Positions 9,674-43,262 of a DNA stretch of 64,000 nucleotides are shown piece by piece. A program made the translations under genes and the position numbers. The DNA comes from Gemmatimonadaceae bacterium (lineage in GTDB: Bacteria > Gemmatimonadota > Gemmatimonadetes > Gemmatimonadales > Gemmatimonadaceae), in contig JBHYGA010000001.1 in the NCBI GenBank assembly GCA_051859245.1, positions 1,533,722 through 1,597,721 of the forward strand, written 5' to 3'. The stretch's first letter is position 1, and each line of letters begins with the position of its first letter. The notes below the pieces were generated by a model. It saw only the letters and a program-made list of their open reading frames with translations. It had not been told where the DNA came from and searched no databases.

Positions 9674-11288
9674 GCGACTCACTCGCCGACAAGGCGACTT
9701 CGTGCGCGAACAATACTTCCAGCGCGAACTTGGACTGCCCGCGCGCGAAGGCGGCCAGGGTGGAATACGTAAATCCGATCGCGCCGAACTGCGCCGAGCC
9801 CGAACCCGTCTCAAACGCGTCGCCATCAACCGGCTCGTAGCGATCCGCACCGAACGAGCGATACAGCCACGTCGCCGACACACCAAATTTGTCGCTCAGA
9901 TTCAGACGCGGCGCCACCTCAAGATCGACGCGCTGTCCCAGTGTGCGTGACACCGCCTGCGGTGTGCTCAGAAAGAAAAACTCTGGTAAACCTGCGCCCG
10001 GCACTCGCACCACCGCATTGTCCGCCAGCGGCGTGGTGCTACGAACGGTGGCTGAGACCCACGCACGATTTCTCCACACCAGATCGGTCGTGGCGCGCAG
10101 CAGCAACGCATTTACACCATCACCGGTGGCCAGTGCGAAGGCTTCGTTCGCTTGCGCGCTGCTGGCCGTACCAAAGCGCCAGCCGGCCGAGCCCAGTACA
10201 CGGATGCCCGAGCGTCGTGTTGAAAGGCGCGCCGCCTGATCGCCTTTCCACGTGTCGTACAGCAACACGCGTGCTTCAACGTCAACGTCGCCCATGCCGG
10301 CGCGGAAGGCGGCGGCCAACGTGTCCGCTTCCACGCCGAATGCCGGGTCCTGCGCGATCCGCTGCAATCCGTTGGTGCCGTACACGAGCACGGCACCGCT
10401 CGGGCCGATCGGCGGCAGCGTGGTCGTGCTCAGGAACCGTGTGAATCCTTCGCGAATGTCATCGAGTGATTCAGCCACTGCATTGTGCACCGCGCCGCCC
10501 TGCACAGGCACGAGCGGCGAACCAACGTCCTGATCATTGCCGTAGACAGCGCCCCACGCCGCACGAAATGATGCGACCCGTGCGGCGAGCGCCTGCGCAG
10601 CGGCGGGATCGGCGCGAATAGCGTCACACTCTGCGCCCGCCGTGGAGGCGGCGCAGCTCGAAATCAGGTCGAGCAGTCGCGTGCGTTCGTTGCCGAGTTG
10701 TACAAAGATGCTGCTGTTGGCCGTGTACACAGACGGGGACAGAATGCCGGGATTCTGACCGACGTTCGCGCCTGTGCCATTCCGGTTCAGCACCAGATTC
10801 GCGTTGTGCGTGACTTCCACATACGGGACGCGCACACCAACGCTGATACGCCGCGTAACGCCGAAGTCGGCCTGCAGCGTGGTCGTAGTGCGACGCACGG
10901 CGCCACTGGCTTCGAGTGCTCCCAGTGACAGATCGAAGGTGGGCAGTCCGGACAGCGCGCGAATGCCGTTCTGCGCGGGGGCCAGCGACGGCAACTGATT
11001 CACACCGAGGGACGAGGTCGCGAGCCCGTCCAGCAGCGGCGACCTCGTGCCGTCCGGGAAGAGGCGGCGATCCCACTGATCCCAGGAAACGCCAACGTTG
11101 ACGCGCAAGCCGCGGGCTGGAATCGGGATCGCGTCTTCACCAAGGCCGGCCACGGGCTGCGCCGAAAGACGGGGAACCGCCGTCAGCGCGATCACACCAG
11201 CCAGCAACACAGCGGGAATCACCGCACGCGATCGGGCAGCGGCGCGAGTTTCAGGGCGACGAGTCAGAAGAAGTCGGGTTGAGCGCAC
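9609..11288 (-). CDS. Secreted/outer-membrane protein of unknown function (probable beta-barrel with helical insertion)
   Basis: Signal-peptide-like N-terminus (LSA-Q) and alternating amphipathic beta strands with aromatic residues. Its 3' end overlaps recN by 65 nt. Confidence 0.65.
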   Translation of the reverse strand: MRSTRLLLTRRPETRAAARSRAVIPAVLLAGVIALTAVPRLSAQPVAGLGEDAIPIPARGLRVNVGVSWDQWDRRLFPDGTRSPLLDGLATSSLGVNQLPSLAPAQNGIRALSGLPTFDLSLGALEASGAVRRTTTTLQADFGVTRRISVGVRVPYVEVTHNANLVLNRNGTGANVGQNPGILSPSVYTANSSIFVQLGNERTRLLDLISSCAASTAGAECDAIRADPAAAQALAARVASFRAAWGAVYGNDQDVGSPLVPVQGGAVHNAVAESLDDIREGFTRFLSTTTLPPIGPSGAVLVYGTNGLQRIAQDPAFGVEADTLAAAFRAGMGDVDVEARVLLYDTWKGDQAARLSTRRSGIRVLGSAGWRFGTASSAQANEAFALATGDGVNALLLRATTDLVWRNRAWVSATVRSTTPLADNAVVRVPGAGLPEFFFLSTPQAVSRTLGQRVDLEVAPRLNLSDKFGVSATWLYRSFGADRYEPVDGDAFETGSGSAQFGAIGFTYSTLAAFARGQSKFALEVLFAHEVALSASESPIPSLARDRLELRIFRGFPKR

Positions 11289-11385
11289 AGGAGGCAGAAC
11301 GAGCCGTGCGCCAGGTGTCCGGCATCACGGGGGCAACCGGCTAGATTAGCCCGATCGTCCAAGCCCGTCAACGCGACGGGTACGC

Positions 11386-13215
11386 GTGCTGATAGCGTCC
11401 TGCCTCCCCAAGGGTTCCGTGTCCGAGTCTCCTCGCTCCATTCCGTCCGTGCCGTGGCAGACCACGGGCAACCATTGGCTGTCGCTCCCGTGCATTCACC
11501 CGGCCAATGGTGCGATCTACGCCCTTGGCGTGTTGCACCGCGGTGCACGCGCTGCTGTGGAGTTCGCCGGTAGCCGAGGTTTTGTGGAAGGTGAAGGCGA
11601 GCCGCTGCTCAAACCCGTGATACGTGTTGACGGTGAGGTGAGAGAACTGGCCAGCGAGGGCATCGCCTGGGAACGCGCCGTTGGCTGGCTTCCGACCTTC
11701 ACCTGTACGCTTGGCTCGCTGTTGCTGCGCGGCACCGTGTTTGCGCCGTACGGTCGCGATGCCGACATGGCGGGCGCCGTGTACGCGATCACGATCGAGA
11801 ATCGTGGTTCGAATACGCACCGCGTGGAGCTCGCACTCGAAGGGGTGCTCGGTCACCGACAGCAGCGCGTGCGCACACCGCGCGACTTTGACGACGCACA
11901 TCGTGTAGTCCTCGGGCACAACGATACGATCATCCTCGAAGGCGCGGCCGTACCGGGCATGGTGGCGGTTGCGATTGGTGCCGACGGTGAAGCGGTGCGC
12001 GAGATTGGCGACGAGGTGAATGGTCGTATTGCATTTGCGGTGCGTCGCACGCTCACCGTGGAAGCGGGACAGTCCGTGCCGTGCGCGTTTTATCTTGCCG
12101 TCGGTCCGGAGCGTGATGGTGCGTGCGCAACGGTCGGTGTGCTGCGACGCCGTGGCTGGCGCACGTTGCTCGGTGCGACACGCGAAGCCTTGCAGCAGTT
12201 GGAGCAGACCACGGGCCAGGACGCCATTGACCGGCTTGTGAATCGCAACCTGCTGTTCAGCTATTTCTACGGCGTCGGGCGCGGACTCGACGACGCGCAC
12301 TATTACCTCGTGCGCACGCGAGCACCATGGCACAGTCTCGGCGCTACGGTACGTGACTGGGAAGCGCTGATGTGGACGTTGAGCGCTGTCCAACTGGCCG
12401 ATCACGCGCTTGCACGCGAGCTGCTGGTGCGCACCTGTGAACTGCATGGGTACGCGCCGGGGCAGGGTGTGCACTATCTCGATGGCACGCTGTTCGAGCC
12501 TGGGTTTGCGATTGAAGGCGCGGCGGCGTATCCCATTGCAGTTGACCGCTACATTCGGGCGTCCGACGATGATCAAATTGTCGAAGAGCCGGTAGTTGCT
12601 GACACGCTGTATGTCGCGAACGATGATCTGGTTGCACGTCGCGATGAGCGCCTGCCGCTGTACTCCACTGAAGTGAGTCCCAGTGGACAACCCGTGCGGT
12701 TTCCGTTCACGCTGCACGGCAACGCCGTGGTTGCCGCCGCGCTTGATGTGCTGCGGCGCACACTCGATGAAGAGGCCGCGCGCGACGTAGAAGACCCCGC
12801 GGCTGTGCGTGCGGCCATGCAGCGCCACTTCGCGCAGGATCGTGGTGGAAAAGCGCATCTCGCGGCGGCGATCGATCTCGCCGGTGGTGCGGACCAGGTG
12901 GATGATCCGGCTGCGTCCGTGCTGTGGTTGCCGCTGTATGACGCACTTGATCGAGATGACTCGTTGTTCCGCCGGTCGGTGCGCGCGGTTGCGCCGGATG
13001 ATGGCGGGCTCTTGCGTCAGATCGCGCGCTTGCTCGGCCCCGATGGAAACGCGGTGCTCCAATGGCTGCGTCGTGCACCGCTCGATCAGGGGATCGCCGC
13101 GTCGGTGGTGGATAGTGATGGACGCGGCGTGGCCGATGGCGGAGATGCGGCGCTGGCCGGCTTGCTCGCGTCAACGGTGTGGTACGCGTCGCACGCACTC
13201 GGCTTGCACGAATAA
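11386..13215 (+). CDS. Six-hairpin glycosidase-like protein (GH125/DUF1237-like)
   Basis: Beta-rich N-terminal half plus helical C-terminal half with VRD, YLDG.LFEPGF and Y.T..SP motifs resembling GH125-like proteins. Start may be GTG 11419. Confidence 0.6.
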   Translation: MLIASCLPKGSVSESPRSIPSVPWQTTGNHWLSLPCIHPANGAIYALGVLHRGARAAVEFAGSRGFVEGEGEPLLKPVIRVDGEVRELASEGIAWERAVGWLPTFTCTLGSLLLRGTVFAPYGRDADMAGAVYAITIENRGSNTHRVELALEGVLGHRQQRVRTPRDFDDAHRVVLGHNDTIILEGAAVPGMVAVAIGADGEAVREIGDEVNGRIAFAVRRTLTVEAGQSVPCAFYLAVGPERDGACATVGVLRRRGWRTLLGATREALQQLEQTTGQDAIDRLVNRNLLFSYFYGVGRGLDDAHYYLVRTRAPWHSLGATVRDWEALMWTLSAVQLADHALARELLVRTCELHGYAPGQGVHYLDGTLFEPGFAIEGAAAYPIAVDRYIRASDDDQIVEEPVVADTLYVANDDLVARRDERLPLYSTEVSPSGQPVRFPFTLHGNAVVAAALDVLRRTLDEEAARDVEDPAAVRAAMQRHFAQDRGGKAHLAAAIDLAGGADQVDDPAASVLWLPLYDALDRDDSLFRRSVRAVAPDDGGLLRQIARLLGPDGNAVLQWLRRAPLDQGIAASVVDSDGRGVADGGDAALAGLLASTVWYASHALGLHE

Positions 13216-13844: not shown

Positions 13845-16800
13845 GTGGCTGCTTCTGGGGAGACGATTGGGCTCGCGGCGGTAACTCCGCCTGAGCCTCT
13901 GCGCAACGCGTTGCGCACACGGGAAGACTGGGAGGCCGCACGTGCGGCGTGCGAGGCCGATCCCGGTCGCTATCATGGCGACATTGCAGCACACACGCTG
14001 CATTGGTTCGACGCCTCCCTGGGCGAACATGGTGCGTGGATCACACACGATGAACACACCGGCGTGTGGTCTGGCTGGGACGCTCACACCTTGCAGCCTG
14101 TCGCTCCGTCGCGAGACGCGGCGTGGCGACCGTGGACGCGCGCGTTGAACGACGATGACGCGCCGTGGTACCGCTGGTTCGAAGGCGCGCTCACGAACGC
14201 GGGCTTCAACGAGGTTGATCGCCACGTACTCGCCGGCCATGGTGAAGAGCCTGCCTTTCTCGTCGAAGGCGATCGCTGGGATCAGTCACGCGACAACGGA
14301 CGCGGCGCACCTGTGGTGTCGTATCCCATCTCGCGCAAGGGACTGCTCGTCGATGTCGCGAAAGCAGCGCTCGCGTTGCGCGCACTTGGTTTGAAGACGG
14401 GCGATCGCATCGCGCTCAACCTGCCCAACATTCCGCAGCAGATTGCGTGGACTGAAGCAGCAAAGCGACTCGGCATTCTGTATACGCCCGTCTTCGGTGG
14501 CTTCTCGGACAAAACGCTCGCCGACCGCATTCATGACGCGGGCGCGCGCGTTGTGATTACCGCCGATGGCGGATGGCGCAACGCGCAGATCATTCCATTC
14601 AAGGCGGCCTACACCGATCCCGCGCTCGATCAGTACATCGCGGCGGATCGTGCCGTGCACGTCGTGCGTGACGCGCTCGGCGCGCTCTCACTTGACGCCG
14701 CGCAGGTTGAACTGATTGCGCGCAGTGCGGCCGAGGCCGTGGCTGGCGAAATTACCGTGGAACGGCGTGATGCAATGCGCGGTGTGGGTCGCGCGTTGCT
14801 CTCGCTCACGGAGTCTGGCGCGCTCAACGCGTCTGATGCGAGCCGAGTGCGCACGGCGGTCGCGCGGGCACTGGTCGACGCCGGTTCGGCGGTTGAGCGC
14901 GTCGTGGTGGTGAAGTACACCGCGCAAGCCGATGTGCCGTGGCGTGCGGGGCGTGATGTGTGGGAAGACGAACTGCTCGCGCCCGCCAGCGCCGCGTTGC
15001 TTGAGGCGGCGCGCGCGCTCGGACATCGCGTGTCCACCGAAGCGGAACTGCGTGAACTGTCCGACACCGATCTGGTTCGTGTGGTGTGGTCGGTGGTGCC
15101 TCCGGTTCCGGTGGACAGCGAGTTCCCGCTGTTCTTCATCTACACGTCAGGCTCTACTGGCAAGCCCAAGGGTGTCGTGCACGTGCACGGTGGATGGACC
15201 GCCGGTATTGCACACACCATGCGCATCGCGTTTGATGCACAGCCCGGCGATGTGATGTATGTGGTGGCAGATCCGGGATGGATTACCGGACAGAGCTACA
15301 TGATTTCGGCCGCACTGACCACGCGCACCACGAGCGTGCTCGCGGAAGGCGCGCCGGTGTTTCCGTCGGCCGGCCGGTTTGCATCGATCATTGAACGGTA
15401 CAACGTGCGCATCTTCAAGGCGGGTGTCACGTTCCTCAAGAGCGTGATGCAGGATCCGCAAAACGCCGAAGATGTGCAGCGCTATGATGTCTCGTCATTG
15501 CGTGTCGCCACGTTCTGCGCCGAACCCACATCGCCAACGGTGCAAGAGTTTGGCATGTCGCTGCTCACGCCCTGGTACATCAACTCGTACTGGGCCACGG
15601 AACATGGCGGCATTGTGTGGACGCACTTTTTTGGCAACGGCGATTTTCCGCTGCGTGCCGACGCACACACGTATCCGCTGCCGTGGGTGATGGGTGATGT
15701 GTGGCTGGCCGACGGCGTGCCAGATGCAGATGGTCGCTTCGCGCCGCGTGTGGCTGATGAAGGCGAGAAGGGCGAAGTCGTGATCACGGCGCCGTACCCG
15801 TATCTCGCGCGCACCATCTGGGGCGACGTTGGGTCGTTCACGGTGGACGGCCACTCGGTATCTTCCAGTTGGCGCGGTGACATTGATCGGTATCGCGCCA
15901 CATACTGGAGCCGGTGGCAGGGCCGCTGGGCGTACACACAAGGTGATTTCGCGGTGCGCTATCCCGACGGCGGGTTCTCACTGCACGGACGAAGTGATGA
16001 CGTGATTAATGTGTCCGGTCATCGCATGGGCACAGAGGAGATTGAAGGCGCCATTCTGCGCGACAAACAACTCAACGCCGATTCGCCAATCGGCAATGTG
16101 ATTGTTGTTGGCGCGCCGCATCGCGAGAAAGGCCTTACACCGCTCGCGTTCGTCACGATCGCCCCGGGGCGTCGACTCACGGCGGATGATCGTCGCCGCC
16201 TCATCGAACTTGTGCGTCAGGAAAAGGGCGCTGTAGCGGTGCCCGAAGATTTCCTTGAAGTGTCCGCGTTCCCGGAAACGCGCAGCGGCAAGTATGTGCG
16301 CCGACTGCTTCGCGCGCTCGTGGAGGATCAGCCACAGGGTGACCTGAGCACGCTGCGCAATCCGGAGTGTGTGCCCGCGCTGCAACGCGTGATTGGTGAA
16401 TGGAAAGCGCGTCAGCGTGTTCGCGAGTCGCAGCGCATTCTTGAACACGGTCGCTACTTCCGTGTGCAGTACCACACGGTGGCGCAGGTACATGGCGAGT
16501 CCGTTCGTATGGCGCTTGTGACGGTCACGAATGCACCTGTGAACGCGCTGAACGAACGCGCGCTGGATGAGCTGGTCACTGTGGTTGAACATTTGTCGCG
16601 TCGCAAAGACGTGGCCGCCGTTGTTTTCACCGGCGAAGGCACATCGTCTTTTGTGGCTGGCGCTGACATTCGTCAGCTGCTCGAAGATGTGCACACCGTT
16701 GAGGAAGCGGTCACGCTGCCAAACGTGGCCCATCTCGCGTTCCGCACGATTGAGCGCATGAACAAGCCGTGCATTGCCGCGATCAATGGTGTGGCGCTCG

Positions 16801-19331
16801 GTGGCGGTATGGAGTTCGCCCTCGCGTGTCATGTTCGGATCGCGGAACAGAAAGCACTGTTCGGACAGCCGGAGATTCGTTTGAATCTGCTGCCTGGTTA
16901 CGGCGGCACGCAGCGACTCACACGGTTACTCGCTGATCGTGATGGAATGGAAGGCGTTGTCCAGGCAGTGGAGATGCTCGTGGGCGGGCGCACCATCACC
17001 GCGCGCGAGGCCGCAGACATTGGTGTCGTCGACGAAGTGGTTACCGATGCGCAGGATGTCGTGGCGCATGCATCGGCCCTCGTGCGTGACTACATCGCCG
17101 ACCGCGAACAGAGCAAACTTGGCAAGGCATTTCGCCACGTACGCGAACGACGCGAAGCGTGGGAGAAGCCTGGCGCGCTTGATGTGCGCCAGGCGTTCGC
17201 GTTGCCACCTGTGGTGCGGTTGCTGGAGCAAGCCGAACGTGTCGGTCGCGCTGCGCATGTTGCGCGCGTGCTTGATGCCGTCGAAACGGGATGGCGTGAA
17301 GGGCTGGTCTCCGGCCTCGCACATGAAGCGAAGCTGTTTGCATCCGCGGTGGTCGATCCTGAAGCAGGCAAGGCAGGCATTCGCGCGTTCTTCGATCGCG
17401 CCAGTGCGCCGCTCCCCGTGCGACGCGGTGCGATTGTTGATGCGGCCCAGGAAGCCGAACTCGCCGCCCGAGGGGACTTGTTACCGGTTGGTGCCCCGTT
17501 CTTCCCGGGGCTCACCGCCATTCCCACCTGGCAGTACGGTCTTGGTGTCATCAAAGACCCGCACACTGGCGCACCGCGACATGGTGAGCCGGCCCAGGTT
17601 GAACAGCAGGTGGTTGTGCCGGTAGAAACACCGGGTCCGAATGACGTGCTGCTCTACGTCCTCGCGTCTGAAGTGAACTTCAACGACATCTGGGCGATTA
17701 CGGGCATTCCCGTGTCGCCGTTTGATTCCCACGATCGTGATGTACAAGTCACCGGTTCCGGCGGCGTTGGACTGGTGGCATCAATCGGCGACGCGGTGAA
17801 AGCCGAAGGACGCGTGCGTGTTGGCGATCTTGTCACGATCTACTCGGGGCAGAGCAGTTTGCTGTCACCGCTCGCCGGTCGTGATCCAATGTCGGCTGAC
17901 TTCCGCATTCAGGGCTACGAAACGTTTGAAGGCAGTCACCAACAGTTTCTGTTGGTGCAGGCGCCGCAGTGTCATCCGCTGCCGCCCGATGTCACGTTGG
18001 AAGCAGCCGGTTCGTACATCTTGAATCTCGGCACCATCATTCGTGCGCTGTTTACCACGCTGCAAATCACTGGCGGCCGCACGATGTTCGTCGAAGGTGC
18101 GGCCACGGGCACCGGGCTTGAAGCGCTCAAGACCGCCGTCGCGCATGGTCTGAAGGTCACCGGACTCGTCTCGAGCGAAGACCGTGCACACACCGTGAAG
18201 TCCTTCGGTGCAACGGGCGCGATCAACCGCCGAAGCGCAGGCATTTCGGACTGCTTCACGATGGTACCCGGCGACGCCGCGTCGATCGCCAGGTGGGAAG
18301 CCGCCGGACAACCGTTGCTCGAAGCGTTCCGCGCGCAACACGATGGAAAGCTCGCAGACTACGTTGTCTCGCACGCCGGTGAACAGTCGTTTCCGCGCAG
18401 CGTGCAACTGCTGGCCGACGGCGGCTCCCTTGCCTTCTACGGAGCGTCTACCGGCTACCATTTCACCTTTGCGGGCAAGCCAGGCGCAGTGAGTGTGAAC
18501 ACGATGTACGAACGCGCTGGCCTTGTGGCCGGTGAAGCCGTGCTCGTGTACTACGGACCTGGGCTCGCCGCTGACGCATTGGTCGACGCCATCGGCATTG
18601 AAGCCATTGAGGCTGCGGCCGCACGACGCGCACGCATTGCGGTAGTGTGTTACACCGACGCGCAACGCGAGTTTGTGCGTTCGCTTGGCTTTGGCGATCA
18701 ACTCGCTGGCGTCGTCGCGCTTGATGAACTGCGCCGCCGCGCGAGTATGGAGTTCGATTGGCCGAGTACGATGCCGCCGCTGCCAGATGTTCGACGCGAC
18801 TCCATCGCATTCAAGGAAGCAGTGCGCGCATTTCAGGAGCGCACGATCAAGCCGCTTGGCCAGGCCGTGGGCAAACTGCTGCGTTCCTCCGACAATCCGC
18901 GTGGTGCGCCCGACCTGATCTTCGAACGTGCGGCACACGATGCCCTCGCCGCGTCCACCGCATTGGTGCAACCGTTCAGTGGCCGCATTGTGTACGCAGA
19001 AGACATGCACCACAAGCGATACAGTTTTTACGCCCCACAAGTCTGGATGCGTCAGCGACGCATTCTGCTCCCCACGTGCAGCATTCTCGGCACTCATCTC
19101 TGCAACGCCTACGAGGTTGTCCGCATGAATCAGATGCTCGCCGCAGGTCAACTCGACGTTACGGCACCGACGGTAGTGCCGTGGAATGACTTGCCGGAAG
19201 CGCATCAGGCCATGTGGGAGAATCGCCACACGGGTGCGACATACGTGGTGAATCACGCGTTGCCCGCGACCGGACTACGATCGCGCGATGAACTGTACGA
19301 GGCGTGGGCCTCAGGGAGCGCCAACGTATGA
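13845..19331 (+). CDS. pcs: Trifunctional propionyl-CoA synthase (3-hydroxypropionyl-CoA synthetase / dehydratase / acrylyl-CoA reductase)
   Basis: 1828 aa in three domains: acyl-CoA synthetase (YTSGSTGKPKG, YWATEHGG, GRSDDVINVSGHR, PETRSGK), crotonase (AGADI, GGGMEFALAC, QPEIRL) and MDR enoyl-CoA reductase (SEVNFNDIWA, GYET, GAATGTG, GTHLCNAYE). Size and domain order match Chloroflexus/Erythrobacter Pcs. Confidence 0.93.
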   Translation: MAASGETIGLAAVTPPEPLRNALRTREDWEAARAACEADPGRYHGDIAAHTLHWFDASLGEHGAWITHDEHTGVWSGWDAHTLQPVAPSRDAAWRPWTRALNDDDAPWYRWFEGALTNAGFNEVDRHVLAGHGEEPAFLVEGDRWDQSRDNGRGAPVVSYPISRKGLLVDVAKAALALRALGLKTGDRIALNLPNIPQQIAWTEAAKRLGILYTPVFGGFSDKTLADRIHDAGARVVITADGGWRNAQIIPFKAAYTDPALDQYIAADRAVHVVRDALGALSLDAAQVELIARSAAEAVAGEITVERRDAMRGVGRALLSLTESGALNASDASRVRTAVARALVDAGSAVERVVVVKYTAQADVPWRAGRDVWEDELLAPASAALLEAARALGHRVSTEAELRELSDTDLVRVVWSVVPPVPVDSEFPLFFIYTSGSTGKPKGVVHVHGGWTAGIAHTMRIAFDAQPGDVMYVVADPGWITGQSYMISAALTTRTTSVLAEGAPVFPSAGRFASIIERYNVRIFKAGVTFLKSVMQDPQNAEDVQRYDVSSLRVATFCAEPTSPTVQEFGMSLLTPWYINSYWATEHGGIVWTHFFGNGDFPLRADAHTYPLPWVMGDVWLADGVPDADGRFAPRVADEGEKGEVVITAPYPYLARTIWGDVGSFTVDGHSVSSSWRGDIDRYRATYWSRWQGRWAYTQGDFAVRYPDGGFSLHGRSDDVINVSGHRMGTEEIEGAILRDKQLNADSPIGNVIVVGAPHREKGLTPLAFVTIAPGRRLTADDRRRLIELVRQEKGAVAVPEDFLEVSAFPETRSGKYVRRLLRALVEDQPQGDLSTLRNPECVPALQRVIGEWKARQRVRESQRILEHGRYFRVQYHTVAQVHGESVRMALVTVTNAPVNALNERALDELVTVVEHLSRRKDVAAVVFTGEGTSSFVAGADIRQLLEDVHTVEEAVTLPNVAHLAFRTIERMNKPCIAAINGVALGGGMEFALACHVRIAEQKALFGQPEIRLNLLPGYGGTQRLTRLLADRDGMEGVVQAVEMLVGGRTITAREAADIGVVDEVVTDAQDVVAHASALVRDYIADREQSKLGKAFRHVRERREAWEKPGALDVRQAFALPPVVRLLEQAERVGRAAHVARVLDAVETGWREGLVSGLAHEAKLFASAVVDPEAGKAGIRAFFDRASAPLPVRRGAIVDAAQEAELAARGDLLPVGAPFFPGLTAIPTWQYGLGVIKDPHTGAPRHGEPAQVEQQVVVPVETPGPNDVLLYVLASEVNFNDIWAITGIPVSPFDSHDRDVQVTGSGGVGLVASIGDAVKAEGRVRVGDLVTIYSGQSSLLSPLAGRDPMSADFRIQGYETFEGSHQQFLLVQAPQCHPLPPDVTLEAAGSYILNLGTIIRALFTTLQITGGRTMFVEGAATGTGLEALKTAVAHGLKVTGLVSSEDRAHTVKSFGATGAINRRSAGISDCFTMVPGDAASIARWEAAGQPLLEAFRAQHDGKLADYVVSHAGEQSFPRSVQLLADGGSLAFYGASTGYHFTFAGKPGAVSVNTMYERAGLVAGEAVLVYYGPGLAADALVDAIGIEAIEAAAARRARIAVVCYTDAQREFVRSLGFGDQLAGVVALDELRRRASMEFDWPSTMPPLPDVRRDSIAFKEAVRAFQERTIKPLGQAVGKLLRSSDNPRGAPDLIFERAAHDALAASTALVQPFSGRIVYAEDMHHKRYSFYAPQVWMRQRRILLPTCSILGTHLCNAYEVVRMNQMLAAGQLDVTAPTVVPWNDLPEAHQAMWENRHTGATYVVNHALPATGLRSRDELYEAWASGSANV

Positions 19332-22300
19332 GCGACACCACAGCAACGGCCGCTGACCGACGCCGAGCGCCACGCGGTCGACTGGCGGGAAGAGTCGTGC
19401 TGCTCACCGGTGCCGCCGGCAACATCGGAACGCAGATTTCACGGCAGCTACTGCGAGAAGGCGCAACGCTTGTCATGAGCGGCCGGGATCAGGCACGCCT
19501 CGACGCCGCGAAGGCCGCGCTGCGTGAAGAGTTGCACGTACCGGCCACGCGAATACTCACGGTGGTAATGGACGGCGCCGAGCCTGGACAGGTGCGTGTC
19601 GGCGTTGAGCAGGTGATGGCCAAAGCGGGACGCATCGATGTACTCGTGAACAACGCGGGTTCGGCTGGACCAAAGTGTCGACTGCGCGATGTACCGTTCA
19701 CCGCCGGTGAGCTTGAAGCGCTGGCCGAAGTTGGTGTGCACGAGAAGGAAACGGTGAGCGCGGCGGCGCGCAATTTGTTTGGCATTGCGTGGAATCTCGT
19801 GCGTGCCTGCGTGCCGCACATGAAGCCTGGCAGCACCATCATCAACGTCTCCACCATCTTCTCTCGCACGCAGTACTACGGACGCTCGGCGTACGTTGTG
19901 CCCAAGGCGGCCCTGAACAGCTTCTCCAAGCAGCTCGCGGCCGAGGTTGGACCACTCGGCATTCGCGTGAATACCGTCTTCCCTGGGCCGATTCGCTCGG
20001 AGCGAATTCGCACGGTGTTCTCAGCCATGGACAAGTTGCGTCATGCGGAGGACGGCACCACCGCGCGAGAAAACTTCGATCTCATGACACTCGCGCGCTC
20101 GGTGAATGGCGAACCACCGGAGCGAACGTTCCCGAGCGTTGAAGACGTTGCGAACACGATCGTGTTCCTGTCGTCTGACGAATCCGCGGCGTACAACGGG
20201 CACAATTTCGAAGTCACGCACGGCATGCGCGTGCGTCAGGAGTCTCGCAGTACATGGGTCTCACGTCCTGAACTGCGGACTGTCGATGGGTCCGGCGTGC
20301 GCGTCTTGCTGGCCGCTGGTGATCAGGTCAAGGACGCGCTCACCGTGGCACGCGTGCAGGCCGGTTGTGGTGCCGAAGTCGTACTCGGACTCGGCTCCGA
20401 GGAAGGCGTGCAGGCGGCGCAGGAAGCGCTCGGCGCCAATCCGGGAGACGAACGCATTCGCCCGGTACTGCTGGATCGCATGCGCCCTGAAACGGTGGAC
20501 AGCCTCTTCGAAACGCTGCGCCATGAAGACGCGCTCGTGCACGGGGCGATCATCATGCCGGCGTTTGGCGCGTGGCGCTTTCGCGGTCGGTTCACGGATG
20601 CATCAGACAGCGACGTCTCCACGTTCATTGACGGTGAAATCGCGGGCACCATGTTGCTGGCACGTGCACTGACGGTGTTCTGGAAGGATGTGGAGCACGA
20701 GCTCAGCATGCCGCCGAGCATTGCGTTCGTCACGAACGGTGACGATGGAGCGGGGAACAACTACGCCGACGTACTGCGCGCGGCGACGGAAGAGTTGTGT
20801 CGCGTCTGGCGTGATGAAACCGAGGTACAACAGGCATCAGGCGAGCGTCGTTTCGAAGAGTGGTCGAACCAGATCATTCGCTGGGGGAATCGCGAGCCAG
20901 AAGAGGTGCCATTCGCGGCGGGACAGGCCGCGCGGTTGCTGTACACGCGGCGTCGAATTCGTCAGGTGAATCTCTATCTGCCGCTGTCGATCGTACGCGC
21001 CACCGGATCACGTCGCTCGTCGTTCGGGTGGATGGAGAACGTGATGGGGCTGCACCTCGGCAAGGTTGCGCTCATCACGGGCGGTAGTGCGGGTATTGGT
21101 GGTCAGTTGGCGCGGCTGCTCGCCATTGGTGGCGCGCGCGTCATGCTCGTGGCGCGACGCGCTGATCAGCTCAAGGAAATGCGCGACGGCATTGTGACCG
21201 AACTGGAAGATATCGGCTACTACGACGCGCCCGATCGCGTGCAATGCGTGGCCGATGTTGATGTCGCCGATGAGGCGAGTCTGCGCCGCGCGGTTGACGA
21301 AACACTCGCCGCGTTCGGGCGCGTGGATTATCTGGTCAACAACGCCGGCGTGGCTGGCGCGGAACAGATGGTTGTGGACATGGACGTCGAAACGTGGCGA
21401 AACACGCTGAACGCGAATCTCGTGTCGAACTATTCGTTGATCGAGAAGATTGTCCCGATCATGAAGCGGCAGGGCAGTGGATACATTCTCAACGTATCTT
21501 CGTATTTTGGTGGCGAGAAGTACATCGCGGTTCCGTATCCCAATCGGGCGGACTACGCCGTCTCCAAGGCGGGTCAGCGCGCGCTTACCGAGAATCTTGC
21601 CCGGTTTGTCGGGCCGGAGATTCAGGTGAATGCGATTGCGCCGGGTCCGGTTGATGGTGATCGACTGCGCGGAGTTGGTGGCAAACCCGGTCTCTTCGAG
21701 CGTCGTGGCAAGCTCATTCTTGAGAATCGTCGACTGAACGCAGTGTACAAGGCGGTCATCGATGCGCTGCGCGGCGGCGCGCTCGTCACCAACGTGCTCG
21801 CGCTTGTGCAAGGCAACGATGTAGACGCCATCGCCACCGACGAAAGCGCGCCAGCCGCACTTCGCAAACTCGCCGAGAGTATTCGCGCGGAATCACTTGC
21901 GGCCGACACTGAAGCCAGCTCCGGCCGTTTTCTCATGACGCGGAGCATCGCACAGCGTCTCGTCGCGCGGTTGCGCCTCGGCGGGCGCTTTCTCGCATTG
22001 CCGGCGGATGCACCGCAGTATGGCGACGAGTGGATCCTCGCGATTCCCGACGCGGTGGAGCCGTTTATCGATCGCGATCAGATCAAGCGCGAAGCGAGCA
22101 AAATCGGCAAGGGAGTGCTGAGCATGCTGCACTTGCGCAACATGCCGGGCGAGCTCGAGGTCGCACTTGCCACGGTGTACTTTCTCGCGGACCGCGCTGT
22201 TTCCGGAGAGACGTTCCAGCCGTCGGGAGGTTTGCATCAGGAGCGCACCATCACCGAGCGAGAACTGTTTGGCCGTGCCAAGCCCGAGCGCATTGCGCGG

Positions 22301-23026
22301 ATGGCGCAGCAAACGATCTGGCTGGTGGGCGACTACCTGTATCCGCATCTCGCGCGCGCGGCTCGCCTGGCGCTGGAGTACAGCCATGTCGGCCGCATCA
22401 TGCTGCTCACACGCACACCCGAGGCGGCGGCGCAAACCCAGGACTTGCTCCGTATTGTGCTCGGCAATGAACGGGTGCACAGCATTGTGGTGGGTGATGA
22501 TCTCGACGCGGGCATGGACGAGGCACTGCGTGTGGGCGGACAGCCGGCCGCTGTTGTATCAACGCCGTTCGAGCCACTCCCGCGAGAACTCTTCAATGCC
22601 GATGGGTCTGCGGCGCTCGATGCGGCGGGCTTTGCGTCGCTTGTTGAGGAGCACCTGACCCATCACTTCCGCGTGGCGCGCAAAGTGTCGTTGTTTGACG
22701 ACGTGCGTTTGGTACTCGTGTCGCCAGACGTACCGGTGCATCCAACGCACGCCGAGTTCGCCCTGGCAAACTTTGTGAAAACCACCTTGCACGCGCTCAC
22801 CGCCACTCTCGGCGTGGAGAACGAGCGTCTGGTGCACAACGTGCCGGTCAACCAGATCAACCTCACGCGTCGTGTGCGCTCGGAAGAGCCGCGTGACGCC
22901 CGTGAGCAGGCAGAAGAACAGGAGCGCTTTGCCCACGCCGTGTTGCTTGCCAGCGCCCCGTTGCCAGACCAGGAAGACAGCCGATATCGGTCGCGAATCT
23001 ATCGCGGTCTCGCGATCACGGTGTGA
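19328..23026 (+). CDS. mcr: Bifunctional malonyl-CoA reductase (malonyl-CoA to 3-hydroxypropionate)
   Basis: About 1230 aa with two SDR modules: TGAAGNIG/NNAG/YYGRSAYVVPK and TGGSAGIG/NNAG/YPNRADYAVSK. C-terminus RIYRGLAITV resembles Chloroflexus Mcr. ATGA overlap with pcs. Confidence 0.93.
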   Translation: MSDTTATAADRRRAPRGRLAGRVVLLTGAAGNIGTQISRQLLREGATLVMSGRDQARLDAAKAALREELHVPATRILTVVMDGAEPGQVRVGVEQVMAKAGRIDVLVNNAGSAGPKCRLRDVPFTAGELEALAEVGVHEKETVSAAARNLFGIAWNLVRACVPHMKPGSTIINVSTIFSRTQYYGRSAYVVPKAALNSFSKQLAAEVGPLGIRVNTVFPGPIRSERIRTVFSAMDKLRHAEDGTTARENFDLMTLARSVNGEPPERTFPSVEDVANTIVFLSSDESAAYNGHNFEVTHGMRVRQESRSTWVSRPELRTVDGSGVRVLLAAGDQVKDALTVARVQAGCGAEVVLGLGSEEGVQAAQEALGANPGDERIRPVLLDRMRPETVDSLFETLRHEDALVHGAIIMPAFGAWRFRGRFTDASDSDVSTFIDGEIAGTMLLARALTVFWKDVEHELSMPPSIAFVTNGDDGAGNNYADVLRAATEELCRVWRDETEVQQASGERRFEEWSNQIIRWGNREPEEVPFAAGQAARLLYTRRRIRQVNLYLPLSIVRATGSRRSSFGWMENVMGLHLGKVALITGGSAGIGGQLARLLAIGGARVMLVARRADQLKEMRDGIVTELEDIGYYDAPDRVQCVADVDVADEASLRRAVDETLAAFGRVDYLVNNAGVAGAEQMVVDMDVETWRNTLNANLVSNYSLIEKIVPIMKRQGSGYILNVSSYFGGEKYIAVPYPNRADYAVSKAGQRALTENLARFVGPEIQVNAIAPGPVDGDRLRGVGGKPGLFERRGKLILENRRLNAVYKAVIDALRGGALVTNVLALVQGNDVDAIATDESAPAALRKLAESIRAESLAADTEASSGRFLMTRSIAQRLVARLRLGGRFLALPADAPQYGDEWILAIPDAVEPFIDRDQIKREASKIGKGVLSMLHLRNMPGELEVALATVYFLADRAVSGETFQPSGGLHQERTITERELFGRAKPERIARMAQQTIWLVGDYLYPHLARAARLALEYSHVGRIMLLTRTPEAAAQTQDLLRIVLGNERVHSIVVGDDLDAGMDEALRVGGQPAAVVSTPFEPLPRELFNADGSAALDAAGFASLVEEHLTHHFRVARKVSLFDDVRLVLVSPDVPVHPTHAEFALANFVKTTLHALTATLGVENERLVHNVPVNQINLTRRVRSEEPRDAREQAEEQERFAHAVLLASAPLPDQEDSRYRSRIYRGLAITV

Positions 23027-38251: not shown

Positions 38252-39796
38252 ATGTCAATGCGCGAGAAACTCGACCGGCTGGCCGCCGCAAGCGTGGCCG
38301 CAGAACAGGGCGGTGGCGCTGAACGCCTCGCGGCCCAGCACGCCAAAGGAAAGCTGTCGGCCCGCGAGCGGCTCGACGTACTGCTCGACGAAGGCTCCTT
38401 CACCGAACTCGATCGCTTCGTCACGTCGCGATCACTGGGCGAGGGCGAGGCGCCCATCTATGGCGATGGTGTGGTCACCGGCTACGGCCGGATCGACGGG
38501 CGGCTGGTGTACGTCTTTTCGCAGGACTTCACCGTGTTTGGCGGCTCGTTGTCCGAAGCGCACGCGGGCAAGATCTGCAAAGTGATGGACCTCGCCATGC
38601 GAAACGGCGCGCCGGTTATTGGCCTCAACGACTCCGGCGGCGCGCGCATTCAGGAAGGCGTGGTGTCGCTGGGTGGCTATGCCGACATCTTTTTGCGCAA
38701 CACGATGGCGAGCGGTGTGATTCCGCAGATCTCGGCGATTCTCGGCCCGTGTGCCGGCGGGGCCGTGTATTCACCGGCGATCACCGATTTCATCTATATG
38801 GTGCGCAAAACGAGCTACATGTTCGTGACCGGGCCGAATGTGGTGAAGACGGTCACACACGAAGACGTCACGATGGAACAGCTTGGTGGCGCGGATACGC
38901 ATGCGTCAACAAGTGGCGTTGCGCATTTTGCACACGATTCAGAACTCGAGAGCTTGCACGCGATTCGCCAACTGTTCCGCTTTATTCCAAGCAACAATGT
39001 TGACGATGCGCCGCGCGGTGCAGGCACTGATCCCGCAACACGTCGCGATGAAGCACTGCTCGACCTGGTGCCGGATCATCCGAATCAGCCGTATGACATG
39101 CGCGAAGTGCTGCGCCGCATTGTTGACGATGGCGACTTCTACGAAGTGCAGCCGGACTACGCCGCGAATATCCTGGTTGGCTTCGCACACCTGGGCGGTC
39201 AGAGCGTGGGCATTGTGGCCAATCAACCAGCCGTGCTCGCAGGTGTGCTCGATATTGACGCGTCACTCAAGGCCGCACGCTTTGTGCGATTCTGTGACTG
39301 CTTCAATATTCCGATTATCACGTTTGAAGACGTGCCCGGATTCCTGCCCGGTGTAACGCAGGAGCACGGCGGCATTATCAAGCACGGCGCCAAGCTGCTG
39401 TACGCGTACTGCGAAGCCACGGTGCCCAAGCTCACCGTGATCACGCGCAAAGCGTACGGTGGGGCATATGACGTGATGAGCTCCAAACACATTCGCGGCG
39501 ATGTGAATCTCGCCTGGCCCACGGCCGAGATCGCGGTGATGGGTGCAAAGGGCGCCGTGGATATTCTGTATCGCAAGGAGATTGCCTCGGCGGACGATCC
39601 TGCGGCAGCCATGGACGCACGCGTTGCCGAATACACGGAAAAGTTTGCCAATCCGTACAACGCCGCGGCACGTGGTTATGTGGATGATGTCATTGATCCG
39701 CGCGACACACGACCGCGGTTGATTGACGCGTTGCAGACGCTGCGGGGCAAGCGCGATCGGAATCCGCCGCGCAAGCACGGCAATCTTCCGCTCTGA
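38252..39796 (+). CDS. pccB: Acyl-CoA (propionyl-CoA-type) carboxylase carboxyltransferase subunit
   Basis: [43 protein letters not shown] and KHGNLPL motifs. Confidence 0.93.
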
Positions 39797-39803
39797 GCCG
39801 CGC

Positions 39804-41324
39804 ATGTTCAACAAGGTGTTGATCGCCAATCGAGGCGAAATCGCGTTGCGCGTCGTGCGCGCCTGTCAGGAACTCGGCGTGCGCTCGGTGGCCGTGTACT
39901 CCGAAGCCGACGCGCGTGCGCCGCATGTGCGTGAAGCTGACGAAGCGGTATGCATTGGACCGCCGCCGTCGAGTCAGAGTTATCTGCTCGGTGACAAGCT
40001 GATCGAAGTCGCGCTGAAGACCGGCGCCGAGGCGATTCATCCGGGCTACGGATTTCTTTCTGAGCGCGCCTGGTTTGCTCGCGCCGTGCGTGAGGCGGGA
40101 CTCGTGTTTGTGGGGCCTCCAGCGGAAGCCATTGAAGCCATGGGCAGCAAGACTGCCGCGCGACAACTGGTGATCGCCGCTGGCGTGCCCGTGGTGCCCG
40201 GCACCACCACCGCGTTGCGCGATGCAAACGAAGCAGCCGCGATTGCCAACACGTTCGGCTATCCGGTGCTCTTGAAAGCCGCCGCTGGCGGTGGTGGCAA
40301 AGGCATGCGCGTGGTGCGCGCGGCCTCGGAGTTGGAGTCGGCGTTAGCCTCGGCACAACGGGAAGCGCAGAATGCGTTTGGCGATGACGCCGTGTACGTG
40401 GAAAAATACATTGACGGCCCGCGTCACGTGGAAGTACAGGTGCTCGCGGATATGCATGGCAACGTGCTGCATCTTGGTGAACGCGAATGCTCCTTGCAGC
40501 GGCGGCATCAGAAGATGCTCGAGGAAGCGCCTAGTCCTGCAGTGTCAGCGGAGTTGCGCGCACGCATGGGTGAAACAGCGGTCGCCGCGGCGCGTGCGGC
40601 CGGGTATGTGAACGCTGGCACGTGCGAGTTTCTGCTCGACCGCGACGGCCAGTTCTATTTTCTCGAGATGAATACGCGCATTCAGGTGGAGCATCCGGTC
40701 ACCGAACTGGTAATGGGGCTCGACCTGGTGCAGTGGCAGCTCCGTATTGCGGCGGGCGAGCATCTGCCCTTTGAGCAAAAGTCGTTCACGCCGCGCGGTT
40801 GGGCGATTGAGTGTCGCATTACCAGCGAAGATCCAGCCAACGGATTCCTGCCGAGCACGGGTCGCATTACGCATTTGCATCTGCCGAGCGGTCCGGGTGT
40901 GCGCTGGGATGGCGGCATTGAAGCGGGCAGCGAAGTCGGGCTGCACTACGACCCGATGCTGGCCAAGCTGATCGTGCACGCCCCCAATCGGGCGTTGGCG
41001 ATATCGCGCATGCAACGCGCGTTGCGCGAGTTGGTGATTGATGGTGTAGAAACATCGCGTGGTTTTCACCTGCGCTTGCTGGATCATCCGGATGTGCGGA
41101 GTGGCGACATGACCATTCAGTGGCTCGAAGCGCACCTTGATGAATTGACCACGCGCTCCGCGCCGGACGAGACGATTCGCGTCGCGGCGATTGCGGCCGC
41201 ACTGGCGGCGCAGCACGACCGTCAGGAGCGTGCGATACCCACTGTCGCGGATAGCGCGCAGGCGGAAGTGCACGGCGCCAGCTGGCGAGCCGTGGCGCGC
41301 CGAGAAGGTTTGCGTCGCGAATGA
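39804..41324 (+). CDS. accC: Biotin carboxylase subunit
   Basis: LIANRGEIA, HPGYGFLSE, GGGGKGMR, ECSLQRRHQK and EMNTRIQVEH motifs; no C-terminal biotinyl domain. Confidence 0.93.
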   Translation: MFNKVLIANRGEIALRVVRACQELGVRSVAVYSEADARAPHVREADEAVCIGPPPSSQSYLLGDKLIEVALKTGAEAIHPGYGFLSERAWFARAVREAGLVFVGPPAEAIEAMGSKTAARQLVIAAGVPVVPGTTTALRDANEAAAIANTFGYPVLLKAAAGGGGKGMRVVRAASELESALASAQREAQNAFGDDAVYVEKYIDGPRHVEVQVLADMHGNVLHLGERECSLQRRHQKMLEEAPSPAVSAELRARMGETAVAAARAAGYVNAGTCEFLLDRDGQFYFLEMNTRIQVEHPVTELVMGLDLVQWQLRIAAGEHLPFEQKSFTPRGWAIECRITSEDPANGFLPSTGRITHLHLPSGPGVRWDGGIEAGSEVGLHYDPMLAKLIVHAPNRALAISRMQRALRELVIDGVETSRGFHLRLLDHPDVRSGDMTIQWLEAHLDELTTRSAPDETIRVAAIAAALAAQHDRQERAIPTVADSAQAEVHGASWRAVARREGLRRE

Positions 41325-41346: not shown

Positions 41347-42756
41347 GTGAGCAACGAGGATGTTGTCGAGCTTGAGGTGACGTCTCTCGCCGCCGGCGGC
41401 GATGGTGTAGCGCGGTGGAATCAACTCGCCGTGTTTATTCCGCGCACCGCCACCGGTGATGTGGTGCGTGCTCGCGTTCGCGCGAAGGCGAACTTTGCAC
41501 GCGGCGCGGTTGAGGCGGTGCTTCGCGCGTCGCCGAATCGTGTCGAGGCGCCCTGCATTCACTTTGTGCGCGATCAATGCGGTGGGTGCCAGTGGCAGCA
41601 TCTGTCAATACACGCGCAGCGCGATGCCAAAACGCAGCTTGTGGTGGACGCGTTTGCGCGGATTGCGCGCACGCCGATTGCTCGGCCCGAAATCTCGGGA
41701 GACGAGCACACCTTGGCGTATCGGCGCACGCTCAGCTTTACGGTGCGTGGAAACAGCGGCAAACGACACGGTGGATTTCACGCGGCCGCGTCACCCGATG
41801 TGATTGTGCCGATCGGGCGGTGTCTCATTGCGCACGCTGACATTCAGAACACATGGGATGTGTTGCGCCGCCACCTTGCGCTGCTGCCTCGCGTGCGTGC
41901 ACACGTGGCGCGCAGTGAGAACGATGCCAAGCGTAACGTGCGCCGGCGGCGCGATGGGCGCGAAGTGCATGACGATTTGCGTGTGTCGCTGCGTCGACTG
42001 GGTGACGAGGCGATTGCGCTGGTGGTCGAGGGCGGCACCATGTGGCGTGACGAGACGATCACCACACTCGCCGCGCAGCTTCCCATGTGTCGTGGCATCT
42101 GGTGGAAGCCCGAAAGTCGCGAGGCGCGGCTGGTTTGGGAGCCGGTGCAGGGGACCGACGACACCGCGCGTGATGCGAATGCCGCGGCGGCGCTCGATGT
42201 CGCGGCAAGTTTCGTGCAGGTGAACGAAGGCGTGGCGGCGCTGATGCACACGTACGTGTACGACCTCGTGCAACGCGAATCACCGACGCACGTGATTGAT
42301 GCGTACGCGGGCACTGGTCGTCTGGCGATTGCACTCACGAACGCGGTCGGAGCAATCGAACCGTCAGCGGGTGCACCAGGCGCCCACATCCGCGTGACCG
42401 CAATCGAACGCGATGTGCGTGCAAGCGCGTACGCCGCAGCCCAGTTCACCGAACCGTCACGCGCTGTGCAAGGCGCGGTGGAAGAACAGCTCGCGCACGC
42501 GTTGCCCGCCGATGTCGTGGTCCTCAATCCGCCGCGCGGCGGGGTCGACCGTGCGGTGACTGAACTGCTGTCTGCCGCCGTGGCACAACCGCATCGTCCA
42601 CGATTGCTGGTGTATGTGAGTTGTGATCCCGCCACGCTCGCGCGCGATGTGGCCCGGCTGACCGGCTGGCGAGTTGAGCACGTGCACTGTTTTGATATGT
42701 TTCCGCAAACTGCGCACGTGGAAACCGTGTGCGTCCTGCGCCCGGAGGCGTTGTGA
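41347..42756 (+). CDS. TRAM-domain RNA uracil-5-methyltransferase (RlmD/TrmA family)
   Basis: TRAM N-terminus, C..CGGC Fe-S motif, FVQVN, DAYAGTG, NPPR, YVSCDP and DMFPQTAHVE. Start uncertain. Confidence 0.88.
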   Translation: MSNEDVVELEVTSLAAGGDGVARWNQLAVFIPRTATGDVVRARVRAKANFARGAVEAVLRASPNRVEAPCIHFVRDQCGGCQWQHLSIHAQRDAKTQLVVDAFARIARTPIARPEISGDEHTLAYRRTLSFTVRGNSGKRHGGFHAAASPDVIVPIGRCLIAHADIQNTWDVLRRHLALLPRVRAHVARSENDAKRNVRRRRDGREVHDDLRVSLRRLGDEAIALVVEGGTMWRDETITTLAAQLPMCRGIWWKPESREARLVWEPVQGTDDTARDANAAAALDVAASFVQVNEGVAALMHTYVYDLVQRESPTHVIDAYAGTGRLAIALTNAVGAIEPSAGAPGAHIRVTAIERDVRASAYAAAQFTEPSRAVQGAVEEQLAHALPADVVVLNPPRGGVDRAVTELLSAAVAQPHRPRLLVYVSCDPATLARDVARLTGWRVEHVHCFDMFPQTAHVETVCVLRPEAL

Positions 42757-43262
42757 AATACATCGTGGATATCGCGGGCCAACGACTCGTGGTGGAGCTC
42801 GATGGCACGCATGTGTCAGTAGATGGCGAACGCGTTCCCGCCACACTGGAATCGATTGACGGAACGCCGGTGCGGCTGCTGCGCGTCGGTGACACGGTGC
42901 ATCGCGTGCTGGCAAAGCGCGATGGCGCGCGCGGCGAGTACACCCTCGACGTGGACGGCTGGCAGTTCCGCGCCGAAGCGCACGACGAGCGCACACGGGC
43001 CATTCGTGATCTGGCCGCGGCGTCGAGAGCCAGCGCCGGTCCATCGCCGTTGGTCGCCCCAATGCCCGGACTCGTGGTCCGCGTGATGGTGGCCGAAGGC
43101 GACGAGGTGGCGGCGGGTCAGGGCCTCGTGGTGGTGGAGGCCATGAAGATGGAGAACGAGCTCCGGGCCGCGGTGGCCGCACGTGTCACGGCCGTGCGAG
43201 CGGTCGCCGGCACGGCCGTGGACAAAGGTGCGGTCCTGGTAGAGCTGGCGGCGCTCTCGTAG
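42753..43262 (+). CDS. Biotin carboxyl carrier protein (BT-like plus biotinyl domain)
   Basis: APMPG and EAMKMEN biotinylation motif; GTGA overlap with the upstream gene. Confidence 0.92.
   Translation: MKYIVDIAGQRLVVELDGTHVSVDGERVPATLESIDGTPVRLLRVGDTVHRVLAKRDGARGEYTLDVDGWQFRAEAHDERTRAIRDLAAASRASAGPSPLVAPMPGLVVRVMVAEGDEVAAGQGLVVVEAMKMENELRAAVAARVTAVRAVAGTAVDKGAVLVELAALS

Follow-up and report, generated by a model that had tools for sequence, protein, structure and literature searches.

The locus described here raises the question whether a natural propionyl-CoA synthase (Pcs) can fix CO2 in its own reductase domain and so bypass an ATP-dependent carboxylase. The window, by which we mean the whole analysed stretch of 64,000 nucleotides (positions 1,533,722 to 1,597,721 of contig JBHYGA010000001.1, assembly GCA_051859245.1 of a Gemmatimonadaceae bacterium), carries a pcs gene, and a preliminary description had suggested that its reductase domain may be a naturally more carboxylating variant with Met at a water-shielding position. 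According to our results the combination of Asp and Met in this domain is the most frequent natural Pcs genotype and not a rare half-way state. We therefore consider it likely, with a probability of about 0.8, that the gene encodes an ordinary, intact Pcs of a Gemmatimonadales bacterium in which Asp and Met are the family default, that its product is essentially propionyl-CoA and that propionyl-CoA carboxylase (Pcc) carboxylates it. The intactness of the gene, the residue equivalences and frequencies and the gene content are direct results, given below; which product prevails, and how the work is shared with Pcc, is what we infer from them.

Domain layout of the synthase

The gene and its domains are as follows.

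13845..19331, + strand: pcs, propionyl-CoA synthase, 1828 aa, ligase-dehydratase-reductase (open reading frame and alignment to 6EQO_A)
13845..16394, + strand: CoA-ligase domain, about residues 1-850, limits approximate (acetate--CoA ligase models at 399-848; acetyl-CoA synthetase chains at 416-849)
16452..17414, + strand: enoyl-CoA hydratase (3-hydroxypropionyl-CoA dehydratase) domain, about residues 870-1190, limits approximate (models at 888-1090; crotonase-fold chains at 874-1191)
17505..19328, + strand: acrylyl-CoA reductase domain (MDR, Ccr-like), residues 1221-1828 (aligned to 6EQO_A 1242-1843)

The ligase, the hydratase and the MDR reductase follow each other in one polypeptide of about 1800 aa, which is similar end to end to a solved Pcs, with residues 23-1825 aligned on residues 23-1843 of PDB chain 6EQO_A (2419 bits), and which possesses both the insertion in the reductase and the Asp after N-x-N. 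6EQO_A has 1850 residues and is the only three-domain chain of this kind among the PDB matches of the window Pcs; its PDB file is labelled acetyl-coenzyme A synthetase, and we take it to be the Pcs of Erythrobacter sp. NAP1, the organism being our assumption. NCBIfam models describe the ligase stretch 399-848 as acetate/propionate--CoA ligase, and a match of the crotonyl-CoA carboxylase/reductase (Ccr) type covers residues 1244-1542 and a second stretch. The 120 homologues listed for the reductase domain are about 1800 aa long, and many bear the JGI name acrylyl-CoA reductase/3-hydroxypropionyl-CoA dehydratase/synthetase. Among the loci listed from one-genome-per-species contigs, the closest named relatives are Gemmatimonadales with 83-86% identity. 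Judged by its sequence, the window enzyme is most likely a trifunctional Pcs that would convert 3-hydroxypropionate, CoA, ATP and NADPH to propionyl-CoA.

Active-site residues and their equivalents

The positions on which the question turns are these.

17676..17687, + strand: N1278-F1279-N1280-D1281; N1280 corresponds to N81 (CO2 anchor) of Kitasatospora setae Ccr
17685-17687, + strand: D1281, codon GAC; corresponds to D1302 in 6EQO_A and to T82 in K. setae Ccr
17916..17921, + strand: Y1358-E1359; correspond to F170 and E171 of K. setae Ccr
19044..19049, + strand: W1734-M1735 (TGG ATG); M1735 corresponds to T1753 in 6EQO_A and to M356 in K. setae Ccr
19095..19097, + strand: H1751 (CAT); corresponds to H365 of K. 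setae Ccr

All four motifs of the preliminary description are present, NFND starting at residue 1278, GYET at 1357, QVWMRQRR at 1732 and GTH at 1749, and the two codons it had singled out read GAC (from 17685) and ATG (19047-19049). Residues 1221-1828 were mapped on PDB chains with phmmer. On 6EQO_A (E 6.6e-253) two blocks are free of gaps, residues 1-101 of the query on 1242-1342 and residues 506-605 on 1744-1843; Asp1281 pairs with D1302 in one and Met1735 with T1753 in the other, so the proposed positional equivalence, with Met at the T1753 position and the Asp kept, was right. The distance from Asp to Met is 454 residues in the window enzyme and 451 in 6EQO_A because 6EQO_A has two gaps between these sites, one of 2 residues and one of 1. 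Since these are conserved positions in a domain homologous over 600 residues, the motif match is not due to chance.

The equivalence extends to Ccr. The stretch 'yvWMrqkr' of Methylobacterium extorquens Ccr (4GI2) falls on 'qvWMrqrr' of the window domain, and 4GI2 aligns in two pieces, on domain residues 24-323 and 508-600, from which it follows that the Pcs reductase domain contains about 180 inserted residues that Ccr does not have. For the numbering of K. setae Ccr we aligned the Ccr-like protein P0229 to PDB and took chain indices from 6NA3_A (N-Y-N-T 81-84, G-F-E 171-173, W-M 357-358, G-S-H 365-367). The index minus 2 reproduces F170, E171 and H365, so N81 is the second Asn of the motif, T82 the residue after it and the Met is M356; Met1735 therefore lies on the W-M of Ccr, as had been supposed. 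The CO2-binding residues described for K. setae Ccr are N81, F170, E171 and H365, and the F170Y variant retains carboxylation (PMC6628652, passages on the active site). The whole set is found in the window Pcs as N1280, Y1358, E1359 and H1751, and Tyr also occupies the F170 position in 12 of 13 aligned Ccr-like sequences. The same passages attribute the shielding from water to Phe170, and the word "methionine" is absent from them (PMC6628652).

The residue after the CO2-anchoring Asn is small or polar and uncharged in Ccr/ECR proteins (G in 4, N in 4, T in 3 and S in 2 of the 13 Ccr-like sequences), and in the window Pcs it is Asp1281. This Asp is kept in all 278 distinct Pcs-type domains of the survey described below, the window's included. 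Being invariant in Pcs and absent in Ccr, it is the residue that separates both enzyme classes most cleanly. From the alignment and from the reported D1302 mutant we infer that this position may define Ccr. The window reductase domain also scores 212.8 bits against the Ccr equivalog model TIGR01751, below its cut-off of 378.55.

D1302S and T1753M are the mutations that reportedly raise carboxylation in the Erythrobacter Pcs, whose wild type is said to have a carboxylation yield of about 3%, and a water-shielding role is likewise ascribed to the Met by report. These mutant labels find their sole support here in 6EQO_A having D at 1302 and T at 1753. A full-text literature search for D1302S, T1753M, D1302 and T1753 gave only unrelated papers among the matches listed, a search for 6EQO gave only an unrelated paper, and the available passages of papers citing the mutant work contain no residue numbers. 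Passages in reviews describe a latent carboxylation of Erythrobacter Pcs that was raised by rational design through stronger interaction with CO2 and less access of water.

Frequency of the methionine among natural synthases

Four samples were drawn. The reductase domain was searched against a collection of 5.8 billion proteins (1177 proteins with E <= 0.001 among 8000 scored candidates), and the query together with 120 listed homologues of the 1177 gave 121 proteins, 80 with W-M and 41 with W-T, counts that include five motif misses, which were resolved to 1 Met and 4 Thr; the Asp is found in every one of the 121. A search of 50%-identity representatives (1431 matches with E <= 0.001, 150 listed), pooled with the previous sample and aligned with MAFFT, provided 135 aligned Pcs-type domains, of which 90 have Met and 41 have Thr, and at the same site the 13 Ccr-like sequences have Met in 9 cases and Leu in 2, the remaining 2 being misaligned. 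In the contigs of one genome per species, at least 588 of 599 matched stretches encode a relative; 80 loci were kept and in 65 the motif was readable, with Met in 23 (Gemmatimonadales, Steroidobacteraceae, Rhodocyclaceae) and Thr in 42 (Sphingomonadales, many Burkholderiales, Caulobacterales, other Gemmatimonadaceae). A last search, seeded with the distant three-domain homologue P0127, listed 120 proteins, of which 100 were new; these and P0127 itself (n=101) have 78 Met, 11 Thr, 7 Ile, 2 Asn and 1 Gln, with 2 unreadable.

After pooling and removal of duplicates, 179 of the 278 Pcs-type domains (64%) have Met, 89 (32%) have Thr, 7 Ile, 2 Asn and 1 Gln. Among them are four proteins with Chloroflexota names (Chloroflexota bacterium, Roseiflexaceae, Chloroflexia and Chloroflexi), one of which, from Roseiflexaceae, is called 'propionyl-CoA synthase subunit Pcs'. 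All four have N-[FY]-N-D and W-M, the comparison with this phylum consisting of these NCBI-named relatives. With Met in 179 of 278 domains the window Pcs is not a distinctive variant. The alignment that the preliminary description had called for bears out the residue equivalence with 6EQO_A and Ccr, and shows the Met to be common.

Direction of change

Two trees were built with FastTree, rooted with Ccr and read by parsimony, with the Met/Thr column kept in the alignment; rows were excluded if they lacked an AP-x-x-W-type motif or had under 515 residues ahead of it. The smaller tree (188 Pcs-type domains and 6 Ccr-like outgroup rows) requires at least 6 changes between Met and Thr, and the larger one (287 domains and 6 outgroup rows) has Met at the root. 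When only Met and Thr are counted, Thr arose 4 times and Met was regained 2 times, and one origin of Thr spans a clade of 109 tips with a support of 0.71 in the larger tree and 0.40 in the smaller one. The clade of the window enzyme consists of 19 sequences, all with Met (support 0.95), and is nested in a clade of 24 tips (support 1.0) whose remaining 5 tips have Thr. The Met codon is ATG in all 23 Met loci and the Thr codon is ACG in 22 of the 42 Thr loci, a single transition apart. Met is probably the ancestral and default state of Pcs, and the Thr of the Erythrobacter type a derived minority, the direction of change being read from quick trees with a weak deep node and an outgroup without the insertion.

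Carboxylase genes and the proposed bypass

It had also been suggested that the window enzyme might partly bypass the ATP-dependent carboxylase. This is not supported by the gene content, with parts of such a carboxylase lying in the window itself.

38252..39796, + strand: propionyl-CoA carboxylase beta (carboxyltransferase)-like, PccB (Carboxyl_trans domain; PDB matches)
39723..41324, + strand: biotin carboxylase subunit (NF006367, 654.8 bits, above cut-off)
42729..43262, + strand: biotin carboxyl carrier-like protein (BCCP), 177 aa (Biotin_lipoyl match at window 43050-43247, which is G000:C1:1576771-1576968)

The 14 best PDB matches of the PccB-like reading frame are all named propionyl-CoA carboxylase beta or B subunit (top 3N6R_B, E 1.1e-207), and it scores 797 bits against TIGR01117, under the cut-off of 998.8. 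The biotin carboxylase has the domains Biotin_carb_N, CPSase_L_D2 and Biotin_carb_C, and the domain scan found no biotinyl domain in its reading frame at 39723-41324. The genome (4.70 Mb in 11 contigs, 99.87% complete) has two matches to methylmalonyl-CoA mutase and no Ccr above the TIGR01751 cut-off, the best stretch reaching 173.2 bits. The genome's second-best match to the Ccr model is a 452-aa open frame on the minus strand at G000:C6:311347-312390 (110.9 + 51 bits, far below the cut-off), which is adjoined by a biotinyl-domain frame at C6:312536-312745.

Associations were examined in 50 of the 65 readable loci, namely all 23 Met genomes and 27 of the 42 Thr genomes. A PccB orthologue (at least 52% identity) is present in 17 of the 23 genomes with Met and in 22 of the 27 with Thr, and a homologue of the CoA-transferase of the 3-hydroxypropionate bi-cycle type (E <= 1e-60) in 10 of 23 and 21 of 27, respectively; the completeness of these assemblies is not known and absences are therefore weak evidence. 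Neither gene is enriched in the Met-type genomes among these 50, and the comparison holds no signal for a bypass of the ATP-dependent carboxylase.

Genomic setting

Directly downstream of pcs lies the following gene.

19304..23026, + strand: bifunctional malonyl-CoA reductase-like gene, two SDR halves, 1240 aa

Its residues 26-1240 align on residues 6-1229 of 8HI4_A (1187 bits), and 8HJW_A is also matched end to end; the PDB files name these chains only as SDR, and we take both to be malonyl-CoA reductases. The listed GTG start overlaps the end of pcs by 28 bases (19304-19331). The PDB alignment begins only at residue 24-26, so the true start is probably about 20 codons later.

Elsewhere in the genome there are two reaction-centre L/M-type genes (G000:C5:470220-471883), and on contig C4 an operon of three family-III CoA-transferases, an HpcH/HpaI lyase and a mesaconyl-CoA hydratase (G000:C4:848145-854086, which is L081 10146-16087). 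As far as gene content can tell, the latter corresponds to the half of the 3-hydroxypropionate bi-cycle that assimilates glyoxylate. One genome thus unites the reaction-centre genes, pcs with the malonyl-CoA reductase gene, parts of propionyl-CoA carboxylase, two methylmalonyl-CoA mutases and the C4 operon, and the combined set looks like much of the bi-cycle set in a putative phototroph. Two Gemmatimonadales metagenome-assembled genomes (MAGs) with bi-cycle genes are mentioned in a passage of an earlier report (PMC9802188), and the term "3-hydroxypropionate" has 0 occurrences in the papers on phototrophic Gemmatimonadota among the matches listed.

Upstream of pcs there are long overlapping reading frames at 9609-11288 (minus strand), 11368-13062 (minus) and 11386-13215 (plus), none of the three (window 9609-13215) having a Pfam or NCBIfam match, and about 630 bases between 13215 and the pcs start are non-coding. 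A 456-aa reading frame at 31061-32431 (minus strand) is a weak match to a HipA-family (YjjJ-type) toxin kinase (E 6.5e-19; 68 bits, the cut-off being 401).

Mechanism and alternative explanations

In an ordinary Pcs the ligase domain would convert 3-hydroxypropionate to its CoA ester, the crotonase-fold domain would dehydrate 3-hydroxypropionyl-CoA to acrylyl-CoA, and the Ccr-like MDR domain would reduce this with NADPH to propionyl-CoA, all within one polypeptide. The hydride transfer from NADPH would yield an enolate that is mainly protonated to propionyl-CoA, which the biotin-dependent carboxylase encoded 19 kb downstream would then convert to methylmalonyl-CoA. The pairing of pcs with a malonyl-CoA reductase, in a genome with much of the bi-cycle gene set, would fit this route. 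Since the complete Ccr-like CO2 pocket is kept, a small carboxylation side reaction is plausible, and carboxylation by the window Pcs would be at most such a minor side reaction.

Several points weigh against so ordinary a picture. If T1753M does raise carboxylation, as is reported, natural Met-type enzymes could exceed the approximately 3% quoted for the Erythrobacter wild type, and our literature search found no carboxylation measurements for any Met-type Pcs. The Met of the window's clade is most parsimoniously a reversion, which could mean selection and not drift, the larger Thr clade having a support of only 0.40-0.71. The pair of reaction-centre genes and the bi-cycle-like operon form a setting where ATP-free carboxylation would pay, and the PccB absences, in assemblies of unstated completeness, are weak evidence.

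It is conceivable, at less than even odds, that Met and Thr are neutral for the choice of product and that the site flips by single transitions, through drift or local packing only. The at least 6 changes in both directions, the one transition between ATG and ACG, the lack of association with PccB or the bi-cycle CoA-transferase and the presence of both states inside Gemmatimonadales and inside Pseudomonadota all agree with this. Against it, 268 of 278 domains have one or other of these two residues, a sign of constraint at the site; the states are also stable within clades, with 6 changes over 188 tips, and T1753M is said to shift the product ratio of the Erythrobacter enzyme. A more active role of the residue, in which Met1735 lifts carboxylation in vitro several-fold above the few percent of the Thr-type Erythrobacter enzyme and leaves mainly a reductase through Asp1281, seems doubtful to us. 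It is favoured by the positional equivalence with T1753 and the Ccr Met, by the presence of all four CO2-binding residues and by the latent carboxylation that was raised by design in the Erythrobacter enzyme, T1753M reportedly being among the changes. If true, it would hold for about two thirds of natural Pcs and hence be no feature of the window gene; the Met is also found in Chloroflexota Pcs, whose bi-cycle needs a separate propionyl-CoA carboxylase, and the shielding from water in K. setae Ccr is assigned to Phe170, the methionine being unmentioned in the passages concerned (PMC6628652).

Two further readings would give the residue a physiological role. The Met-type enzymes might have substantially more built-in carboxylation than the Thr-type Erythrobacter enzyme, with the repeated switches tuning the share of acrylyl-CoA that goes straight to methylmalonyl-CoA; we regard this as improbable, and if it were true, the Thr-to-Met reversion in the window's clade would save ATP in the CO2 assimilation of this bacterium with its reaction-centre genes and bi-cycle-like gene set. 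That a physiologically relevant share of acrylyl-CoA and CO2 becomes methylmalonyl-CoA directly, partly replacing the ATP-dependent carboxylase, is very improbable. The equivalence of Met1735, the complete CO2-binding set, the apparent reversion and a bi-cycle-like gene set with reaction-centre genes, where ATP saved per carboxylation would be useful, can be put forward in its favour. On the other side, the window enzyme keeps the Asp found in every Pcs and in none of the 13 Ccr-like sequences, its reductase domain scores under the Ccr equivalog cut-off, the window encodes PccB, biotin carboxylase and BCCP, and with the Met neither is PccB depleted nor the bi-cycle CoA-transferase enriched. 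An ordinary Pcs working together with Pcc is thus the reading we prefer.

Related proteins

Some relatives depart from the common pocket. P0128, P0133, P0162 and P0159 have Pcs-type reductase domains with T, V or G in place of the Asp and with W-M kept. P0128 (939 aa) consists of reductase and hydratase; P0133 (2388 aa) has hydratase, ligase and reductase, and G-F-E-T; P0162 (2640 aa, NCBI name Omnitrophota) is a fusion of an HpcH/HpaI lyase, a MaoC domain and a reductase. As candidate carboxylating acrylyl-CoA reductases of natural origin, these four are more promising than the window enzyme. A clade of seven Pcs-like three-domain proteins of about 1832 aa (P0127 and P0279-P0284, one of them named as a Gammaproteobacteria MAG) has lost the Ccr-type pocket, with INRDD for VNFND, VSIQQ for VWMRQ, GTN for GTH and, in 5 of 7, QGMDS for QGYET, a motif that was not found in the other 2. 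Many Met-type Pcs (P0285-P0339, for example from Azospirillum) have Gln at the equivalent of Glu171 (QGYQS), as do altogether 59 of the 278 distinct Pcs-type domains.

Meaning for enzyme engineering

The window gene itself is of little significance, being one further Pcs with the usual residues. The observation of the Met is correct and biologically ordinary, and what value it retains lies in guiding the engineering of such enzymes. Our survey suggests that the model enzyme of the engineering work bears the minority Thr. If the report on T1753M is right, that change would have restored the consensus residue of the family, probably also the ancestral one, and natural Met-type Pcs, those of Chloroflexota included, already bear it. 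The engineering of a carboxylating Pcs could then begin from a Met-type scaffold by altering the Asp alone, and a comparison of natural Met and Thr enzymes would reveal how far a single site controls CO2 capture.

Comparison with known systems

The 6EQO Pcs resembles the window enzyme in its length class (1850 and 1828 residues), in the three domains in identical order, in NFND, GYET and GTH, and in the insertion of the reductase. It differs in having Thr at 1753 where the window enzyme has Met, in having three residues fewer between the Asp and this site, and in belonging to another phylum, the nearest named relatives of the window enzyme being Gemmatimonadales. The Chloroflexota bi-cycle Pcs (P0345, P0353, P0362 and P0374; about 1800-1860 aa) share with it the three domains, N-[FY]-N-D, W-M and GTH, and are more distant in sequence; their 43-45% identity is to P0127 and not to the window enzyme. 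Ccr (K. setae 6NA3 and 6OWE; M. extorquens 4GI2) has the MDR fold in common with the window reductase domain, as well as the equivalents of N81, F/Y170, E171, H365 and W355-M356. Unlike the window enzyme, it is a stand-alone protein of about 430-450 aa that lacks the roughly 180-residue insertion, it has T, S, G or N at the site of the Pcs Asp, and the Pcs domain remains under the cut-off of the Ccr equivalog.

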